From positions 960,001 to 1,024,000 of the forward strand of contig JBMNIF010000002.1 in the NCBI GenBank assembly GCA_050950765.1: DNA of 64,000 nt. The letters run 5' to 3'. The stretch is from Bdellovibrionota bacterium. Its GTDB lineage: Bacteria > Bdellovibrionota_C > UBA2361 > JAAYZI01. This document shows, in pieces, positions 5,289 to 63,350 of the stretch. The notes beneath the pieces are model-generated. The model did not search any database. It worked only from the letters and a program-made list of their open reading frames with translations, and was not told the origin of the DNA. The first letter of the stretch is position 1; every line of letters starts with the position of its first letter. The translations under genes and the position numbers were made by a program.

Positions 5289-5440
5289 AGATATTTAATA
5301 ATAATTTAAGAGTGTTAGTATAAGGTAAAACGGTTTTGTAACACGGATCCTTTTATCGATAAAGATATGCTTTGAGAAGGTGATACCATAAAACCCCAAC
5401 CATAAAACCTAGTATCGTAAAAAAGATTTATACCGTAAAA

Positions 5441-5700
5441 GTTAGTTAAAAGGGGCCAGGTCTCTGTGATTCGTCTGACTAACGTTTGATTAACAGGTCT
5501 AGTAAAAATTTTAGTTAAGGGTGGGGTAAAAGGGGCTAGGTCTCTGTGATGCGTTTGAGCAACGTTTGATTAACAGGTCTAGTAAAAACTTTAGTTAAGG
5601 GTGGGGTAAAAAGGATGGCTAGGTCTCTGTGATCTCTTGGCGGATCAGTGTTTGGCTTAAAAAGGTCTAGTAAAAACTCAAGTTAAGGGGGAAAAAGGTG
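5441..5700. repeat. Tandem repeat, about 80-83 bp x3, diverged
   Basis: AGGTCTCTGTGAT at 5458, 5538 and 5621; AGGTCTAGTAAAAA...GTTAAGGG in each unit. Confidence 0.9.
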
Positions 5701-14289: not shown

Positions 14290-15441
14290 ATGAAAGGAGT
14301 TTGTGAAAACGATAAAGTTCAAAAAAACGCAGGTGTCGGTGTACGAGTTCTAATTGCAGCAAGTGGAACGGGAGGGCATCTCTTTCCGGCTGTTGATATT
14401 GCACGCGCTTTTCAGAAGATAGACGAAAAGGCTGAAGTGATGTTCGTCGGTTCAGGACGTTACTTAGAAGCTGAAATCATTGATAAAGCAGGATTTACCA
14501 GATCTGTAATCGATATAGTAGGGATAAAACAACGGGGCTTGAGTGGCTTAATCGAGTTTTGCATGAAGTTGCCAAGTGCGCTTTTGCAAGGTTGGGGGAT
14601 AATCTCTCGATTTAAACCTGATATTGTAATTGGAGTCGGTGGTTATGTTACTGTAATTCCGGTGGTTTTAGCGTGGCTTCGTGGAATCCCAACATGGATT
14701 CATGAAGCTGAAAGATCTCCAGGGATGGCTAACAGATTTTTAGCGCACATCTCTTACCGTATCTCAGTTGCTTTTCAAGATGCACAAGTTTCTCAACGTG
14801 ATAAAGTTGTTTATACCGGACAGCCGATAAGGGAAGTTTTTAAAGAGATCGCTGCGGAAAATAAAGAGGTAGATATACCGCGCAACTTATTAATAACCGG
14901 AGGATCGCAAGGAGCAAACGCTCTGGATACGGTTGCAGAGGCTTTAATACCGTTTTTTAAAGAGAAGAATTTAAATATCAGGCATCAGTGCAGGCAGGAA
15001 AATCTTGAGAAACTAAAAGCTGCTTATGCGGAGAATGGTGTCACTGCTGAGGTTATGGATTTTATTCAAGACCTGCCGGAATCTTATCGTTGGAGTGACC
15101 TTATAATTGCGCGTGCTGGTGCTGGAAGTACTATGGAGATCGGAGTGATTAATCGTCCGACCATCTTCGTCCCGTTCCCGTTCGCTCAAGGGAATCATCA
15201 ACTTAAGAATGCACAAATCCTTGCAGATGCTGGAAAAGCCTTAATTGTGGAGGAGGGAGATGAGTTCTGTAATAGATTAGAAAAAGCGTTAGCAGATCTC
15301 TTAACACCAGCAATTTATAATAAGATGAAGGCTGCTCCATACCGTTCAAGATCCCTTGATGCTGCCGAAAATATCGCTAAAGGGTGTCTAAAGATTTTAA
15401 AAATTAAAAAAGGTAAATTTTTTACCTCCGTAGAAAACTAG
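14290..15441 (+). CDS. murG: Lipid II GlcNAc transferase MurG
   Basis: Motifs GTGGH, GGYV, IHE, GGSQGA, RAGAGS, HQxxNA. Confidence 0.95.
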   Translation: MKGVCENDKVQKNAGVGVRVLIAASGTGGHLFPAVDIARAFQKIDEKAEVMFVGSGRYLEAEIIDKAGFTRSVIDIVGIKQRGLSGLIEFCMKLPSALLQGWGIISRFKPDIVIGVGGYVTVIPVVLAWLRGIPTWIHEAERSPGMANRFLAHISYRISVAFQDAQVSQRDKVVYTGQPIREVFKEIAAENKEVDIPRNLLITGGSQGANALDTVAEALIPFFKEKNLNIRHQCRQENLEKLKAAYAENGVTAEVMDFIQDLPESYRWSDLIIARAGAGSTMEIGVINRPTIFVPFPFAQGNHQLKNAQILADAGKALIVEEGDEFCNRLEKALADLLTPAIYNKMKAAPYRSRSLDAAENIAKGCLKILKIKKGKFFTSVEN

Positions 15442-15900
15442 CCGATCCGTTTTTCAGTTTGAGCCCGTTCAAGTGTCCTTAGAGGGTGCTGCCACTGGTG
15501 GGTGGCACCAAATTTTTAACCGCCGCCAAGATTTGACTGATCTGCCCAATCTGAAGGGTAAGCCCCTCAATTAGGACACCCACTTTTTGCTGAAGGGTGG
15601 CACCAAATTCGCCAAACCCCAACTTTTGCTAACATCTTGATATTACTAGCAGCCCTAAAGGGTGGCACCAAATTTTTAACCTCCGTAGAAATCTAGCCGA
15701 TTCGTTTTGCAGTTTGAGCCCGTCCTGTTGTCCCTGAAGGGTGGCACCAATTTTTTAACCTCCGTAGAAATCTAGCCGATTCGTTTTTCAGTTTGAGCCC
15801 GTCCTGCTGTCCCTAGTGGGTGGCTCCACCTACAAAGCCAGCTGATCCTCCCAATCTGAAGGGTGGCACCACTTTTGACTAAAAGTGGGTGTTATTTTTT
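15415..15900. repeat. Mosaic repeat array 1 (GGGTGGCACC core plus linker modules)
   Basis: Exact cores at 15500, 15595, 15660, 15739 and 15861; degenerate cores at about 15484, 15555 and 15818; linkers shared with array 2. Confidence 0.93.
15867..15900 (+). terminator. Hairpin plus T-rich tract upstream of aspS
   Basis: CACCACTTTT-GACT-AAAAGTGGGTG followed by TTATTTTTT. Confidence 0.55.
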
Positions 15901-15970
15901 AATCGCTTGCGCTATCTTTTGAGGAAGCTTTTGAAAAAGTGAGTGTTAAGTGTCAATGGTAGTGTAAGAG

Positions 15971-17761
15971 ATGGGGAAGATAACTCTAAAAAGTGTATAT
16001 AGAACTCATACCTGTAATGAGCTAGGGGCTAAAGATATCGGTAGCGAAGTAAAACTTTCCGGTTGGATTCAACGAAAACGAGACTTGGGTGGTGTTGTTT
16101 TTGTTGATTTGAGAGACCATTACGGAATTACGCAACTTGTTTTTTCTGAAGCAGATCGTGAACAAATTCAGGATATTCGTACGGAATCTGTTATTCAAGT
16201 TTCTGGTGTCGTTAAACAACGTGAGGTCGCTAATCAAAAAATCACGACAGGTGAAATAGAGGTGCACTGCTCCTCTCTCGAAGTGTTGGGTCCAGCTCAA
16301 ATGTTGCCGTTTCAGATAGCAGAAGATGATAATGCACCTGAAACAACGCGCCTCAAGTATCGATACCTCGATTTGCGACGTGAGAAGTTGCATAAAAATA
16401 TCGTACTACGTTCAAATGTGATTAGAGCTATGCGCGAGATTATGCAGGATCTGGGCTTCTTAGAGTTGCAAACGCCGATTCTAACTAGTAGTTCTCCGGA
16501 AGGCGCACGGGATTTCCTAGTGCCGTCAAGGTTTCATCCAGGGAAGTTCTTTGCCTTACCGCAAGCTCCGCAACAGTTTAAGCAGCTGTTGATGGTCTCT
16601 GGTTTCGACAGATACTTTCAGATTGCGCCGTGTTTTAGAGATGAAGATCCTAGGGCAGATAGATCCCCAGGAGAGTTTTATCAACTTGATATCGAGATGG
16701 CATTTGCAGATCAGGAAGATGTCTTTTCAGTAGTAGAAACGTGCCTTGATGAAGTGTTTGCACGTTTTTCTAAAAATACCTTTACACGCAAACCATTTCC
16801 ACGCATCTCTTTTGCTGATTCTATGGCTTGGTACGGTACTGATAAACCTGATTTAAGGGTTAGTGTTAAGTTGCAGGATGTAACGACGCTCTTTAAGCAA
16901 TCACACTTTAAAGTTTTTGCTTCTGAAATTGCTAACGGAGGTCAGATTATAGCGTTACCGTTTACAGTTGAGGCAGCACCGTCAAGAAAATTCTTTGATA
17001 ACACAGTAGCTGAATTTAAAGACCTTTGCGGAAAGGGGTTGGCGTATCTCATATTTGAAAACGGTGAATGTAGAGGAAGTATCTCGAAGTTTGTTTCTGA
17101 AGAAGAGGTTCAAGCATTAAAAACGGAGCTGCAATTTAAAGAAGATGGTGTAACCGTTGTCTTCCTTGCTGCTGGTGTAGCTAAAGATATTTTACCGTCT
17201 TTAGGTAAGTTGCGAGTTGAGTTGGGTAAACACTTCGATCAGATGGAACGTGATATCTTTAAGTTCTGCTGGATTACTGATTTCCCGATGTACGTACCAG
17301 ATGAGGAGACAGGCGCTGTAACTTTTAGTCATAATCCGTTCTCAATGCCGCAAGGTGGGATGAAAGCTTTAGAAGAACAAGATCCCTTTACTATTCTTGC
17401 TTATCAATATGATGTTGTTTGTAACGGTTTTGAATTGAGTAGCGGTGCTATTAGGAATCATCGACCAGATATAATGTATAAGGCTTTTGAAATCGCTGGA
17501 TATTCACAAGAGGTCGTTGATGAAAAATTCGGCGGTATGATTAACGCCTTTAAATTCGGAGCCCCTCCTCATGGCGGTATCGCCCCTGGTATCGACCGTA
17601 TCGTTATGTTACTTGCTGGAGAACAAACTATCCGTGAAGTTATCGCATACCCTATGGCGCAGACTGTGGAAGACCTGATGATGGGTGCGCCCTCGGTTGT
17701 TTCTGAAAAACAGTTAAGAGACGTGCATATTCAACTCGCCCCAATAAAAGAAGGCAACTAA
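15971..17761 (+). CDS. aspS: Aspartate--tRNA ligase
   Basis: Motifs YRTHTC, DLRD, PEGARDF, ALPQAPQQFKQLLM, FRDED, GAPPHGGIAPGIDR. Confidence 0.97.
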   Translation: MGKITLKSVYRTHTCNELGAKDIGSEVKLSGWIQRKRDLGGVVFVDLRDHYGITQLVFSEADREQIQDIRTESVIQVSGVVKQREVANQKITTGEIEVHCSSLEVLGPAQMLPFQIAEDDNAPETTRLKYRYLDLRREKLHKNIVLRSNVIRAMREIMQDLGFLELQTPILTSSSPEGARDFLVPSRFHPGKFFALPQAPQQFKQLLMVSGFDRYFQIAPCFRDEDPRADRSPGEFYQLDIEMAFADQEDVFSVVETCLDEVFARFSKNTFTRKPFPRISFADSMAWYGTDKPDLRVSVKLQDVTTLFKQSHFKVFASEIANGGQIIALPFTVEAAPSRKFFDNTVAEFKDLCGKGLAYLIFENGECRGSISKFVSEEEVQALKTELQFKEDGVTVVFLAAGVAKDILPSLGKLRVELGKHFDQMERDIFKFCWITDFPMYVPDEETGAVTFSHNPFSMPQGGMKALEEQDPFTILAYQYDVVCNGFELSSGAIRNHRPDIMYKAFEIAGYSQEVVDEKFGGMINAFKFGAPPHGGIAPGIDRIVMLLAGEQTIREVIAYPMAQTVEDLMMGAPSVVSEKQLRDVHIQLAPIKEGN

Positions 17762-18812
17762 CCCCGTCTTACTAGAGGGTGGCACTTTTTACGCCGTCCA
17801 GATCTAGCTAGCTCATTTTGTAGTTGCAGCCCGTTCAATCGTCCTTGAAGGGTGGCAGCAAAATCGCCAAACCCCAACTTTTGCTAACATCTTGATATCA
17901 CTAGCATCCCTAAAGGGTGGCACCAAATTTTTCGCCCCAATAAAAGAAGGCAACTAACCCCGTCTTACTAGAGGGTGGCACTTTTTACGCCGTCCAGATC
18001 TAGCTAGCTCATTTTGTAGTTGCAGCCCGTTCAATCGTCCTTGAAGGGTGGCACCAAATTTTTAACCTCCGTCCAGATCTAGCTAATTCGTTTTTTAGTA
18101 TCACCCCGTTCAATCGTCCTTGAAGGGACTTTTAGCTGTTGGGTGGCACCAAATTTTTAACGTCCTTGAAGGGTGGCACCAAATTTATCCAGTCGCCTAA
18201 GCCGTCAAAGCAGCAAAAAAAGAAGGGTAGCACCAAATTTTTAACCTTCGTCGAAATCTAGCCGATTCGCTTTTCAGTTTGAGCCCGTCCTAGCGTCCCT
18301 GAAGGGTGGCACCAAATTTATCCAGTCGACTTTTGCTAACATCTTGATATCACTAGCATCCCTGAAGGGTGGCACCAAATTTTCCTCCAAATTTTTAACC
18401 TCCGTCCAGATCTAGCTAACTCGTTTTGTAGTTGCAGCCCGCAATCGTCCCTGAAGGGTGGCACCAAATTTTTTACCCAGCCTTCCAATTAGGACACCCA
18501 CTTTTAGCTGAAGGGTGGCACCAAATTTTTAACCTTCGTACAGATCTAGCTAATTCGTTTTTTAGTATCACCCCGTTCAATCGTCCTTGAAGGGTGGCAC
18601 CAGATCTGCCAATTTCTAAGTTTTAGCTAACATATTGATATTATTACTAGCCTTGAAGTACTAGCCTTGAAGGGTGGCACCAAATTTATCCAGTCGCCTA
18701 AGCCGTCAAAGCGGCAAAAAAAGAAGGGTGGCACCAAATTTTTAACCTTCGTCGAAATCTAGCCGATTCGTTTTTCAGTTTGAGCCCGTTCTAGCAGCCT
18801 TGAAGGGTGGAG
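17736..18812. repeat. Mosaic repeat array 2, about 16 cores in one orientation
   Basis: GGGTGGCAC(C) or close variants at 17777, 17850, 17915, 17973, 18046, 18141, 18171, 18225, 18304, 18367, 18456, 18513, 18592, 18672, 18726 and 18805, joined by recurring linker types. Confidence 0.95.
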
Positions 18813-20244
18813 CTACATCTTGCGGAAGGAGGCCTTTTTCGAACTCTTTTCGTAGGGTGCGGATCTCTTCTACCTCTTCCGTTTCTGAAGAGGGGTAGCC
18901 CTCTGTTAACCTTAGGGCGGATAGACAACTACTTTTCGAGTGAGCGGAACCTGCTATCGGGAGTAGCCTCTGATCTTGATCTCGGCGTTTAGCACCGCCG
19001 TTTATCCCTGTTCCTTCTGGAGAGGTGCAGAATTCAGTACCTGCCGAATCGTACGGCGGATAGATATACCAGTTACCATCACGCCCCTTGTAGTGCGTTG
19101 CAAAATGAAAACGGGTGATTGAATTTGTGGCACCGCTGGTAGCGCCTCCCCATTGCGTAGCGTGACAACCATAAAAAGGACAATCTGCATCTGATAAAGG
19201 TGCTCCCGCTAAACTCATGCCGACAGCGCGGCTAAGTTGATGCGCAATAATCCAATACAGATCGATAAAGGTGTCTTGTGTGGCAGGCGCAGAGACCTCC
19301 TTCAGCCGTTGTAAGATCTCAGAATGCGCAACTACTAAAGCATCGTTTATAATAATACGATCAGTCGTGAGTGGCGTGCTTGTAGACCCAGGGATCTTTT
19401 TAGCATACCAAAATGAATCGGTAAGGTGTTGCGGCTTAGTCGAAATCCAAAGACCTCTCTGATCTGATAATTTAGCATCAGATCTATTTTTTGTTAGAGA
19501 CCTGCTAAAATTAGATACGTATTGATCTTCGGTAATAAAATGTAACGCTACTCCACTCTTTTCAAAATAACCTAGACCAAGATTGTCAGGATCGTGAATA
19601 AAAAGATCTTTTTGTAGTGGGTTTGTTGAAATCCAACCAGTGACGGTAAAAAAACCACGATACTCTTCAAATAATGTCAAACCATCACCACGAAAATCGC
19701 TAAGAGGTAGATCGTCATTATCACTATCTTGCAGCGATCTCTGAACGGCGTATTGATCTTCCCAAACATCAGCGATCTTATTTCTGTTGTTATCAACGGG
19801 AATGGTATAGCCCCCTTGCTGTGTTGTCTTGCAAGGTATCCAGACACCGTTCTGTAACGTTTCAGCAGTGATCTCTCCCCAAGCAGCACCATCAAGCGCT
19901 TTTATAATAACAGAAGCCGTTCTTACTTTTGTACGTGTTTCTATGCTAAAGCCGTTAGTAGTTTCGGATGCCTCTAAGAAAGAGCTCTGATTTGGCTTAA
20001 AGATCAGATCAAAATTATCACCATCTCCATAATTAAGAGCCACCCCTTTATAACGTGTTACATTAGATAAATTAAAACGGAAGCGCAGGGGTTGTGGTGA
20101 AGAAGTTTGTGCTGTGATCGTTATCTCGCCATTAGGTCTAGGTCGCCAAGAGTATTCCGGAGCATTCAGAGTAGCAGTAACTTCTGCCTGAACGATTACA
20201 GGTGCAAAGAAAAAAGATATAAGAGCTAGTTTTAAGAGCGACAT
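18775..20244 (-). CDS. Secreted protein with degenerate zincin-like motif
   Basis: Signal peptide; DNNRNKIADVWE and GDGLTLFEEYRGF acidic motifs; IAHQLSRAVG where HELGHxxG would be expected. Confidence 0.6.
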   Translation of the reverse strand: MSLLKLALISFFFAPVIVQAEVTATLNAPEYSWRPRPNGEITITAQTSSPQPLRFRFNLSNVTRYKGVALNYGDGDNFDLIFKPNQSSFLEASETTNGFSIETRTKVRTASVIIKALDGAAWGEITAETLQNGVWIPCKTTQQGGYTIPVDNNRNKIADVWEDQYAVQRSLQDSDNDDLPLSDFRGDGLTLFEEYRGFFTVTGWISTNPLQKDLFIHDPDNLGLGYFEKSGVALHFITEDQYVSNFSRSLTKNRSDAKLSDQRGLWISTKPQHLTDSFWYAKKIPGSTSTPLTTDRIIINDALVVAHSEILQRLKEVSAPATQDTFIDLYWIIAHQLSRAVGMSLAGAPLSDADCPFYGCHATQWGGATSGATNSITRFHFATHYKGRDGNWYIYPPYDSAGTEFCTSPEGTGINGGAKRRDQDQRLLPIAGSAHSKSSCLSALRLTEGYPSSETEEVEEIRTLRKEFEKGLLPQDVAPPFKAARTGSN

Positions 20245-47262: not shown

Positions 47263-48213
47263 ATGGATGAATCAAGACTTTCAGAGTTTGCTTTATTGGC
47301 TAAGATCTTACATAGACAGGAGTCTCCCGATCTTATTTTGCCGAATGGAGATGATGCCGCTGTAATAAAGATCGGCAGATCTCTTGTAGCTATTACAACT
47401 GATGCCGTTGTTGAAAATAAACACTTTTCATTCTCTTATTTTTCAGGGAGACAGGTCGGAATTAAAAGTGTTGAGAGTGCAGTTTCTGATCTTATTGCTG
47501 TGGGTGCTGTGCCGAAAGGGATCGTTATAGCGTTGAGTATTAGTGAACTGACTGAAACTGTGCTTATAGAGGAGGTTTATAAAGGTATCTATGCAGCTTC
47601 TGAGCGTTTAGGATGTCAAGTTTTAGGAGGGGATCTAACAGTTAACTCCGGAGGGCTGGAAGTTGCAGTGACGGCTTTAGGGCATATTGAGAAGAAGCGA
47701 GATATTATAACGAGGTCTGGTGCTAAGGCTGGTGATTTAGTGTGTGTAACGGGTGCGCTTGGCGGTTCTATGGCGGGATTTAGAGCAATTAGGGCAGGGT
47801 TAGCAGGCTTTAAGGCGACTAGATTAAAACATTTACAACCGCTGTGTCGTTTCGATCTGTGTGGTAAGTTAAAAGGGGTGCACGCTGCCATAGATATTAG
47901 TGACGGACTCTCTTCAGAGATAAATCATATCTGTCAAGCGAGTCATTGTGGAGCGATGATTACATCTTCTGATATCCCTATTACGCCGGAGGTGCGTCAG
48001 ATCGCTGCAACTTTAAATGAAAACCCTTTAGATTATGCTTTAAATGGCGGAGAGGATTATGAACTACTTTTAGCAGTAGCTCCGAAACGGTATAATGATC
48101 TTATGGGAAGTGTGATCGGTGTCTTTACGGAGTCGCCTGAGATATTGATAGAGATTGATAATCAACAACGGACACTACAACCACGTGGGTACGATCACTT
48201 GGTAAAAGGGTAG
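47263..48213 (+). CDS. thiL: Thiamine-monophosphate kinase
   Basis: Motifs GDDAA, SDLIAVG, GGD, DISDGL, GGEDYEL, GYDH. Confidence 0.93.
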   Translation: MDESRLSEFALLAKILHRQESPDLILPNGDDAAVIKIGRSLVAITTDAVVENKHFSFSYFSGRQVGIKSVESAVSDLIAVGAVPKGIVIALSISELTETVLIEEVYKGIYAASERLGCQVLGGDLTVNSGGLEVAVTALGHIEKKRDIITRSGAKAGDLVCVTGALGGSMAGFRAIRAGLAGFKATRLKHLQPLCRFDLCGKLKGVHAAIDISDGLSSEINHICQASHCGAMITSSDIPITPEVRQIAATLNENPLDYALNGGEDYELLLAVAPKRYNDLMGSVIGVFTESPEILIEIDNQQRTLQPRGYDHLVKG

Positions 48214-48350
48214 TAAAAAAGTTTGTTTATTAAGTGAGGTGTTTTTTTTATTTGTAAAATATGTTTGCGAGTACGATCACTTGGTAAAAAGTTAGTAAAA
48301 AGTTTTGTTTGTTAATGGAAGTGTTTTTTTATTTGTAAGATATAAATGCT
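48189..48350. repeat. Tandem duplication, 82 bp x2, including the thiL 3' end
   Basis: GTACGATCACTTGGTAAAA at 48189 and 48271; GTGTTTTTTT(T)ATTTGTAA in both units. Confidence 0.88.
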
Positions 48351-53867: not shown

Positions 53868-54075
53868 GAAAATGGAGGAGCCTTATAACTTGATCTTTTT
53901 TCTTCGGGTAGCCTCTTAGCGCTATCAATCGCTTCTTTAATTTGAGGGAGGAAAAAGGGGCTTGTCCTATAACCTGATTTTTTTCTTCGGGTAGCCTCTT
54001 AGCGCTATCAATCACTTTTTTAATTTAAGGGAGGAAAAAATGGAGGAGTCTTATAGCCTAATCTTTCCTTTTCCT
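53868..54075. repeat. Tandem repeat, about 84 bp x2.5, including the 3' end of the 54051 gene
   Basis: TCTTCGGGTAGCCTCTTAGCGCTATCAATC at 53901 and 53984; stop-codon-like segment at 53883, 53967 and 54051. Confidence 0.88.
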
Positions 54076-61743: not shown

Positions 61744-63114
61744 ATGGTGCAGGAGTGTAGTGTAAGGAAGTATTTCGGGACGGATGGGATCCGTTGTGTG
61801 GCGGGTGTCTCTCCCCTTGATCCGGAAAGTTTAGTCCGTTTAGGACGAGCTGTTGGGGAGGTTTTCTTAAATAATCATGGGAAACGCACCGTTATTATCG
61901 GTAAAGATACCAGATTGTCGGGATATATGATTGAGAATGCTTTGGTAGCTGGTATCACTTCAGTTGGTGCTAATGTTAGGTTAACAGGGCCGTTACCAAC
62001 AGCAGGTTTATCGTATCTTACACGGAGTATGCGTTCTGATGCTGGTATAATGATTTCAGCTTCGCACAACCCTTATGAAGATAATGGGATTAAGATCTTT
62101 GCTTCTGATGGTTATAAGTTGCCTGATGAGGTGGAGTTAAAGATAGAGTCATTGATGCAGCTCGGTGCTTTGGACGGCAAGGTGGCAGATCCAGCGGATA
62201 TCGGAAAAGCCTTCCGCCTAGATGATGCTGTGGGTAGGTACACGGTCTATTTGAAAAATTGTTTTCCGAGAGAGCTCTCTTTAGATGGATTAAGGATCGG
62301 TTTGGATTGCGCCAATGGTGCTGCTTATGTTGTAGCACCCCAAGTTTTTGAGGAGTTGGGGGCTGAAGTTGTCTCTCGTGGAATAAGCCCGAACGGTCGT
62401 AATATCAACGCCGGATTTGGTAGCTTATACCCCGAAATAGTGAGAAAATTAGTTGTTGAGCAGAACTTACATCTAGGAATTTCATTAGATGGTGATGCAG
62501 ATAGGGTGATCTTTTCTGATGAAAAAGGGAATGTTCTTGATGGAGATATGATTATCGCGATCTGCGCTGTTTACCTGAAAGAGCACGGACTTCTACCAAA
62601 AAATCAGATCGTGGCAACCGTCATGTCTAACTTAGGTTTAGAGAAGTTTTTAGGACAGCACGGCATCTCCGTTATCAGGTCTCAAGTGGGGGATCGTTAT
62701 GTTTTAGAAGAGATGCGTAAGGAGCAGATCGCTCTTGGCGGAGAGCAATCTGGACACGTTATCTTTGCTGATAGCTCCACAACGGGTGACGGTATCTTAA
62801 CAGCTTTGAAGGTCTTGGAGATAATGGTTCGTAGCGGTAAAACGGTTTCAGAGTTGACAGCTGGGTATCAGAAGTTTCCGCAAAAGTTGATAAGTATAAA
62901 AGTTTCTCAAAAACCTCTCCTCTCTACACTCCCTGAGGTTTGCGAAGCGATTAAAAAAGTTGAAGATGAATTGAAAGAGGGCGGACGTGTTTTAGTTAGG
63001 TACTCGGGCACGGAGAATAAAGCGCGTGTTATGGTTGAATGTGAGAGTGAAGATCGTTGTCAAAAATATGCTGCTGATCTAGCAGAGGTGCTGGAAAAAA
63101 CTATCGGTGAATAA
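61744..63114 (+). CDS. glmM: Phosphoglucosamine mutase
   Basis: Motifs FGTDGIR, GKDTRLSG, SASHNP, DGDADR, GGEQSGH, RYSGTE. Confidence 0.96.
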   Translation: MVQECSVRKYFGTDGIRCVAGVSPLDPESLVRLGRAVGEVFLNNHGKRTVIIGKDTRLSGYMIENALVAGITSVGANVRLTGPLPTAGLSYLTRSMRSDAGIMISASHNPYEDNGIKIFASDGYKLPDEVELKIESLMQLGALDGKVADPADIGKAFRLDDAVGRYTVYLKNCFPRELSLDGLRIGLDCANGAAYVVAPQVFEELGAEVVSRGISPNGRNINAGFGSLYPEIVRKLVVEQNLHLGISLDGDADRVIFSDEKGNVLDGDMIIAICAVYLKEHGLLPKNQIVATVMSNLGLEKFLGQHGISVIRSQVGDRYVLEEMRKEQIALGGEQSGHVIFADSSTTGDGILTALKVLEIMVRSGKTVSELTAGYQKFPQKLISIKVSQKPLLSTLPEVCEAIKKVEDELKEGGRVLVRYSGTENKARVMVECESEDRCQKYAADLAEVLEKTIGE

Positions 63115-63350
63115 CAAGGATTTTTTTACCGTTATTATGATCTGCTTGAGTATATATTCGGAGAGCGGAGAGGAAAAAAGTTAGTGGTGAATAACAAGGA
63201 TTTTTTTACCGTTATTATGATCTCCTTGAGTATGTATTCAGAGAGTGGAGAGGAAAAAAGTATCGGTGAATGATGAGATAGCAAGAAATTTTTTACCGTT
63301 ATTATGATTTAGTTGGGTATGTTTTTAGAGAGGAAAAAAGTTAGTGGTGA
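63102..63350. repeat. Tandem repeat, about 80 bp x3, including the glmM 3' end
   Basis: GGTGA at 63106, 63186, 63265 and 63346; TTTTTTACCGTTATTATGAT and GAGAGGAAAAAAG in each unit. Confidence 0.9.

Follow-up and report, generated by a model that had tools for sequence, protein, structure and literature searches.

The window analysed here, a stretch of 64,000 nucleotides (nt) from a Bdellovibrionota bacterium (assembly GCA_050950765.1, contig JBMNIF010000002.1, positions 960,001 to 1,024,000 of the forward strand), carries two arrays of a short direct repeat, the core (GGGTGGCACCA), on either side of aspS, which raises the question of what the core is and how such arrays are built. A preliminary description, made from the letters alone, had counted about 8 cores upstream and about 16 downstream of aspS in one orientation and had taken them for an undescribed mosaic repeat family, perhaps spread in trans by a RAYT-like HUH enzyme. 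We find that the core is the terminal inverted repeat (TIR) of a transposase element with six copies elsewhere in the genome, the ends of which have expanded into about 100 direct, helically phased mosaic arrays, and that aspS is a bystander. The features in question are:

15415..15892, + strand: upstream array, seven cores (GGGTGGCACCA) at 15484, 15500, 15595, 15660, 15739, 15818 and 15861
15971..17761, + strand: aspS, aspartate-tRNA ligase, 596 aa, bystander gene
17762..18810, + strand: downstream array, 16 cores, from 17777 to a truncated core at 18805

In the core scan of the window, five of the seven upstream cores (15484-15871) and 11 of the 16 downstream ones (17777-18815) were exact 11-mers, all on the + strand, and no reverse-orientation core with up to two mismatches was found near aspS. 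The downstream count and the single orientation of the preliminary description therefore stand; upstream, a further, truncated core lies near 15556.

The core is the end of a multi-copy Y1 transposase element

A genome-wide count, one of the checks proposed in the preliminary description, yielded 967 copies of the exact core 10-mer in the 2.64-Mb genome, against about one expected at 40% GC, while a reversed control 11-mer was absent (0 copies), so the core array is not a product of chance. Allowing one mismatch raises the count to 1167 sites. Together the 147 listed clusters cover 68.6 kb (2.6% of the genome) and nearly all have a single orientation, in line with the earlier view that the units are direct rather than inverted; inverted core pairs are confined to some array starts and to the left ends of elements. 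A single array (G000:C2:1191063-1192155, G000 being this genome) differs from the others in having blocks of alternating orientation. Only 47 of 1063 cores lie inside crude calls of open reading frames (ORFs), many of them spurious ORFs of the arrays themselves.

A PF01797 search of the genome recovered, above the cut-off, six copies of a 322-aa Y1/HUH gene, all of them intact; differences between the ORFs amount to 0-14 of 966 nt, and the encoded protein is identical in five of the six. In all six copies the gene is flanked by cores that point outward at both ends (left ---+, right +++), and the core, read TGGTGCCACCC on the strand entering the element, is thus its TIR. A RAYT-like HUH enzyme encoded elsewhere, as had been guessed, does exist, and with its TIR being of a described kind (TIRtron/TIRYT, as set out in the text of PMC3733652), the family is not wholly undescribed. 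One extra inverted core stands about 160 nt before the transposase gene, and only that doublet folds (z -4.7). At one copy (G000:C2:8885-9731; L001, L007), the right end is followed by a tandem repeat of the element's 3' 403 nt, in which the end of the transposase gene is contained.

The protein carries NHFH at residues 60-63, YIYINP at 121 and SS at 142-143, with a HuH-Tyr distance of 60, and NHFH and YIYINP are conserved in 15 homologs. The best structural match of its predicted model (pLDDT 88.5) is 4ER8, the Escherichia coli TnpA-REP (E 5e-7, Z 14.3), and its score against the RAYT equivalog NF047646 is 67.4 bits, below the cut-off of 80. No Pfam helix-turn-helix (HTH) domain (Bac_DnaA_C, HTH_23, HTH_28) was found in the 322-aa protein at E 0.1; the C-terminal part was not modelled and compared on its own. 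Homologs occur in 36 of 40 relatives, many with inverted end motifs of their own, and the core 11-mer itself also bounds homologous elements in G025 (two loci) and G040; a word-based locus search with the transposase gave no match.

The expansion is specific to this lineage: the exact 11-mer has 943 copies here and at most 37 in 123 other genomes of the phylum, and the own end motifs of four relatives have 8-26 copies, in fragmented assemblies that may lose arrays. The 37 copies are those of G019 (L083-L085), arranged in small direct clusters in a genome in which the transposase query gave no match, possibly a relict family. Small direct clusters of the 11-mer were also seen in Planctomycete genomes (L092, L108, L111, L115, L118, L122, L133, L148), where a Y1 gene lies nearby in 2 of 80 loci.

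Arrays capture DNA from one side and grow locally

To follow unit formation, family sequence was masked and DNA private to the flanks was sought inside 115 arrays, a test that replaced earlier unmasked screens swamped by family linkers (59 inward versus 40 outward). It returned 18 matches in seven of the 115 arrays, all from the inner side, from which the cores point away, and none from the outer side, with similar lengths of searchable flank on both sides (60,479 versus 64,286 nt). The duplicated 3' 403 nt of the transposase element follow the same inner-side manner, and one of the cases lies in the downstream aspS array:

17932..18058, + strand: captured segment, a 99% copy of 17736-17862, made up of the final 26 nt of aspS and the unit that opens the array

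This segment is joined 7 nt after the preceding core. Contigs of metagenome runs X9 and X17 pass through it unbroken at a depth of 4-7, and the captured 122-nt duplicate has about twice the depth of its flanks (116 versus 60-70 in X2; 8.1 versus 2.9-4.3 in X3), which suggests that the unit is recent and strain-specific; it seems absent in two other strains. A search of metagenome contigs for strains had no match.

Among relatives, eight end-arrays, picked by eye from 29 loci and composed of units that are not independent, show the same asymmetry in a purer form, with 50 of 51 units sharing an outer piece of 6-9 nt followed by 4-50 nt of element end. A constant outer piece with a variable inner length is the product expected if a nick is made on the outer side of the motif, the strand is extended inward and the ends are rejoined. 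Clean young arrays were seen beside homologous transposase genes in L036 (G002:C23; 23 units), L010 (G015:C30; 11 units) and L029 (G031:C86; 6 units). Once present, arrays grow mostly by local tandem duplication, with 32 block duplications within arrays versus 18 between them.

Cores are helically phased

Core-to-core distances peak at 21, 32-33, 43, 53-54, 65, 76-79, 88, 100 and 110 bp, a quantisation of about 11 bp that, like the captured aspS 3' end, the preliminary description had missed. When 277 linker clusters were each counted once, the best period was 11.1 (R 0.37, against a jittered-null maximum of 0.19). The phasing persists in singleton clusters, in linkers without core remnants and in 4/4 contigs tested, where one control motif (R 0.21) was itself part of arrays; 123 linkers with almost no common inner word gave a best period of 10.5 and R 0.48 at 11.1. 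The AA/TT period of the genome outside arrays is 11.2, and in vivo helical repeats of 11.1-11.6 bp are among those reported (PMC1762422).

The mini-palindromes noted in the preliminary description are not structural: none of the five array units examined folds better than shuffled sequence (z +0.67 to +2.27), and a REP-type hairpin was accordingly rejected. Because array units form no hairpins and the cores are phased, recognition of duplex DNA by the enzyme would be the simplest reading. TnpA-REP, as described in the relevant part of PMC8266576, recognises folded single-stranded DNA.

Arrays are concentrated and oriented around elements

Arrays are enriched at 0.9-25 kb from elements (26 versus 10 expected, p 0.001; 13.7 if centred on random arrays), and 23 of these 26 point away from the element. 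Gene orientation was rejected as the cause of this outward pointing: only 110 of 188 genes near elements point toward them, and 23/26 remains above the gene-orientation expectation of 0.54 (p 2e-4). Across the genome there is no orientation skew by replichore (58/103 arrays, p 0.24), on which ground a polar motif of the KOPS or Chi type was rejected. The outer end of an array faces the 3' end of a gene in 76 of 103 cases, and in co-directional gaps in 38 versus 13, possibly through target choice or selection.

Linkers match two Y1 families

Among 886 linkers, 297 match the element arms and 229 a second repeat family, 31 of these matching both, while 391 match neither, and no shuffled-control linker matched either family. 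The second family, with about 190 copies in the genome, is the end motif of another Y1 gene:

G000:C1:418239-419291 (L037:10739-11792): second Y1 gene, 350 aa, single-copy, bounded by inverted GGACACCC doublets

Its protein has NHLH (consensus NHYH), YVDLNP and a HuH-Tyr distance of 113, with PF01797 below the cut-off, and TnpA-Y1 subclass 2.3 is characterised, in the section of PMC6006769 that treats it, by about 325 aa, WE, YVDLNP, TS and a HuH-Tyr distance of about 110. Judged by these motifs, the gene is of the subclass 2.3 type and its element the predicted source of linker D, which equals the second family's motif; linker B resembles the spacer in its doublets. The direction of borrowing is inferred. 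Two unrelated Y1 families mix their ends in one array.

A nick-extend-rejoin model and its alternatives

With somewhat better than even confidence, we favour a mechanism in which the end motif is nicked on its outside, extended inward and rejoined, with selection for duplex phase, and in which the arrays are mainly selfish DNA. The enzyme would bind the motif by sequence, probably as duplex, and nick one strand about 6-9 nt outside it, remaining attached to the 5' end. Starting at the freed 3'-OH, host polymerase would then copy inward across the motif over a varying length, and the new 3' end would attack the phosphotyrosine bond, yielding a direct unit made of the fixed outer piece, the motif and inward DNA, be it element arm, ends of the second Y1 family or host DNA such as the aspS end. 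Mosaics would result from repeated rounds, some at more distant nick sites, together with ordinary recombination; units with cores on one face of the helix would be copied more often, and new arrays would start close to ends already present on the same strand. The nick, extension and rejoining steps are those of the BIME amplification model drawn in Fig. 7B of PMC3333891.

A bolder version, which we hold only tentatively, is that this clade of Y1 enzymes of about 320 aa has left the hairpin mode altogether, reading a duplex motif in the manner of iterons, nicking at a fixed 6-9 nt and priming arrays from the nick, so that units compete as replicators and whole-turn lengths win. If true, this would make the genome a living example of a stage part-way between an insertion sequence and a domesticated REP-like system, with an enzyme that duplicates neighbouring DNA locally under the direction of sequence. 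The origin and spread of REP-like repeats are described as unresolved in the part of PMC8266576 concerned with them. With about 1000 cognate sites, an element that is intact in several copies and relatives that carry clean young arrays, the present case leads to sharp predictions on the nicked strand and its offset, the direction of capture and the dependence on helical phase, the last of which would mean duplex rather than hairpin recognition.

Several observations count against the favoured mechanism. Nicking, binding and strand transfer at the motif are themselves predictions from footprints in the DNA. In this genome, the distance of a capture junction from the core before it varies between 6 and 92 nt and no constant dinucleotide is evident there, seven capture arrays are a small sample, and the relatives' end-arrays were a choice by eye. 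The genome-wide nesting test of prefixes and suffixes in mature linkers was symmetric (156/379 versus 187/349), so the fixed-outer-end rule is not visible there, and array-end extents are only weakly asymmetric (median outer 25 versus inner 61 nt, p 0.02, 85 arrays). No target-site duplication of more than 6 nt and no empty site was seen at the element copies, leaving copy identity as the sole argument for transposition of the whole element. As to seeding, the 25-kb bin was chosen post hoc, with no orientation bias beyond it, and the excess of shared 24-mers among nearby arrays is slight (medians near 0). As to phasing, the increase of R from 0.28 through 0.49 to 0.70 for linkers with 1, 2-4 and 5 or more variants speaks for the mechanism, but the gradient is inflated by cluster medians, which lower noise; clusters in phase number 85/172, 51/80 and 19/25 with rising linker success, and only 6 of 13 recent captures are in phase. 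This rise, taken with the recent captures, suggests that phasing arises by sorting after unit formation, by the enzyme or by the host. Planctomycete loci with the core motif gave no phasing in 106 spacings (R 0.09), and none was seen in myxobacterial loci either; the loci had been preselected for pairs at 19-49 bp.

One-sided capture and a fixed outer end would equally be produced if the transposase only nicked and replication ran off and re-annealed inward by microhomology, through template switching or slippage and without enzymatic rejoining. The 1-3 nt overlaps in T- or C-runs at several junctions speak for this, yet by itself it leaves the roughly 100 array sites and their orientation near elements unexplained, and microhomology at phased A-tracts is disfavoured because phasing is stronger in linkers that do not start with a T-tract (R 0.43) than in those that do (R 0.27); we regard this version as unlikely. 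Quite unlikely, in our estimate, is domestication, with the arrays kept by host selection as phased architectural sites for a nucleoid protein or the transposase, or as oriented 3' regulatory elements. The about 69 kb occupied (2.6% of the genome), the helical phasing of cores and the facing of gene 3' ends (76/103; 38 versus 13) would all suit it, but the arrays are lineage-specific (943 copies versus at most 37), the cognate gene is multi-copy, nearly identical and insertion sequence (IS)-like, two other strains seem to lack the aspS-end unit, and arrays gather around elements with no link to gene function or replichore (58/103).

We consider it very unlikely that, after a single scattering of the ends in the form of MITE-like pieces, all growth has been by passive unequal crossover, the enzyme having no current role. 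Core-to-core block duplications are indeed common and the nesting test is symmetric; crossover between cores, however, cannot reproduce unique DNA of the inward flank and leave its junction outside the core, all 6/6 copies of the enzyme are intact, and the young arrays of relatives have non-homologous junctions at a fixed offset. That the arrays are artefacts of assembly has a practically negligible probability, even though the supporting data are short reads and a complete array is never covered by one contig piece: pieces of arrays and their junctions with the flanks recur in 4/4 independent runs (bioreactor, digester, biogas and landfill metagenomes), the depth of the 122-nt duplicate is doubled in X2 and X3, and 709 of 787 distinct linkers are unique. 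As far as the contigs show, the arrays are genuine.

Relation to known systems

The system is a TIRtron whose ends have expanded into direct, phased mosaic arrays, and not a REP. As in the TIRtrons of Di Nocera et al. 2013 (PMC3733652, in the text on TIR families), a RAYT-like gene is flanked by TIRs, here in 6/6 copies and in place of REP hairpins, and the TIRs form a dispersed family in dimers and clusters. Quentin et al. 2018 (PMC6006769), in their treatment of the subclasses, tie TIRYT to TnpA-Y1 subclass 2.1, with NH[YF]H, YxxxNP, SS and a HuH-Tyr distance of 58-67, and report a C-terminal HTH (Bac_DnaA_C, HTH_23, HTH_28) in all 20 TIRYT subclass examples. By its NHFH, YxxxNP, SS and distance of 60, the transposase probably belongs to subclass 2.1, from which it departs in six near-identical gene copies and the missing Pfam match for an HTH tail. 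Published TIR families are called "moderately abundant" in that account of PMC3733652, in contrast to about 1000 copies in head-to-tail mosaic arrays here, and helical phasing and one-sided capture, both seen in this genome, are absent from the corresponding parts of PMC3733652 and PMC6006769. The GGGGWSAS motif was absent from the element ends by inspection; according to the TIR text of PMC3733652, it occurs in some TIRs only and is not required. No account of Y1 terminal repeats in direct arrays with helical phasing was found in the literature listings or in the papers cited here, where Figure 9 and the supplements of PMC3733652 and PMC6006769 may list the motif, nor was any experimental study of TIRYT enzymes, the work that uses the term being computational.

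In its working the system is like BIMEs and REPINs driven by a Y1 enzyme, although the tests for hairpin, GTAG foot and doublet fail. Shared with REP/BIME/REPIN and TnpA-REP are extragenic copies in the hundreds, mosaic arrays whose linkers are reused, tandem amplification on the spot, the enzyme fold (4ER8) and footprints that fit the published nick-extend-rejoin model (PMC3333891, as far as its scheme goes); by contrast, the core logo has no GTAG foot, there is no hairpin, the units are direct, and the enzyme is twice as long and present in six copies. Most RAYTs exist in one copy, and REPtrons seem not to be mobile as whole units (PMC8266576 and PMC5581495, in their passages on RAYTs). With IS200/IS605 elements (IS608, ISDra2), the element shares the HUH/Y1 core and several copies more than 98% identical, and differs in YxxxNP instead of YxxxQ, 322 aa versus about 150 aa, inverted ends on opposite strands rather than same-strand subterminal hairpins, and no replichore bias.

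Plasmid iterons are direct, helically phased sites at which the cognate protein binds duplex DNA cooperatively, and in rolling-circle HUH elements such as IS91 nick-primed copying captures adjacent DNA. The sites described here are likewise spaced at whole helical turns, and differ from both in their approximately 100 dispersed intergenic locations, variable linkers and an enzyme of the RAYT rather than the Rep family. A CRISPR array was rejected, as it had been before, given periods of 19-170, recurring linkers and murG, aspS and an ORF of no known family as neighbours. No known RNA family matched the arrays in Rfam at E 1.

Linkers and gene neighbourhood of the aspS locus

All five linkers named in the preliminary description, A (73-79 bp period), B (65), C (54), D and E, and the recurrent C+A block were recovered around aspS:

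15415..15892, + strand: linker order of the upstream array, A, E/D, B, A, A, E; terminates in a small hairpin
17762..18810, + strand: linkers of the downstream array, A, B, captured aspS end, C, D and chimeras
15568..15588, + strand: linker D (GGACACCC type), with a second copy at 18486; matches the end motif of the second Y1 element
15623..15645, + strand: linker B, with more copies at 17878 and 18330; resembles the spacer in the second family's inverted doublets
18164..18309, + strand: C+A block, repeated at 18665-18810 (95% identity)
14290..15441, + strand: murG-like gene, stop and last codons inside the first linker A
18775..20244, - strand: 489-aa ORF, no family match, stop and last codons inside the outer end of the downstream array

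The last 8-12 residues of murG (15415-15441) and of the 489-aa ORF (18775-18810) are array-derived; arrays thus rewrite the C-termini of host genes. At 12 of 19 loci in relatives, aspS lies no more than about 1.5 kb behind murG, so the gap is old and the upstream array came into it later; on the same ground, we rejected the ideas that aspS is a mobile cassette and that the array marks the breakpoint of a rearrangement. In the bacterial order concerned, the dcw cluster stops at murG and is followed by aspS (14290-17761), with murC on another contig. Elsewhere in the window, four unrelated tandem duplications without the core motif (5436-5689, 48189-48343, 53884-54039 and 63084-63330) have periods of 80-83 bp, near that of the commonest array unit (79).

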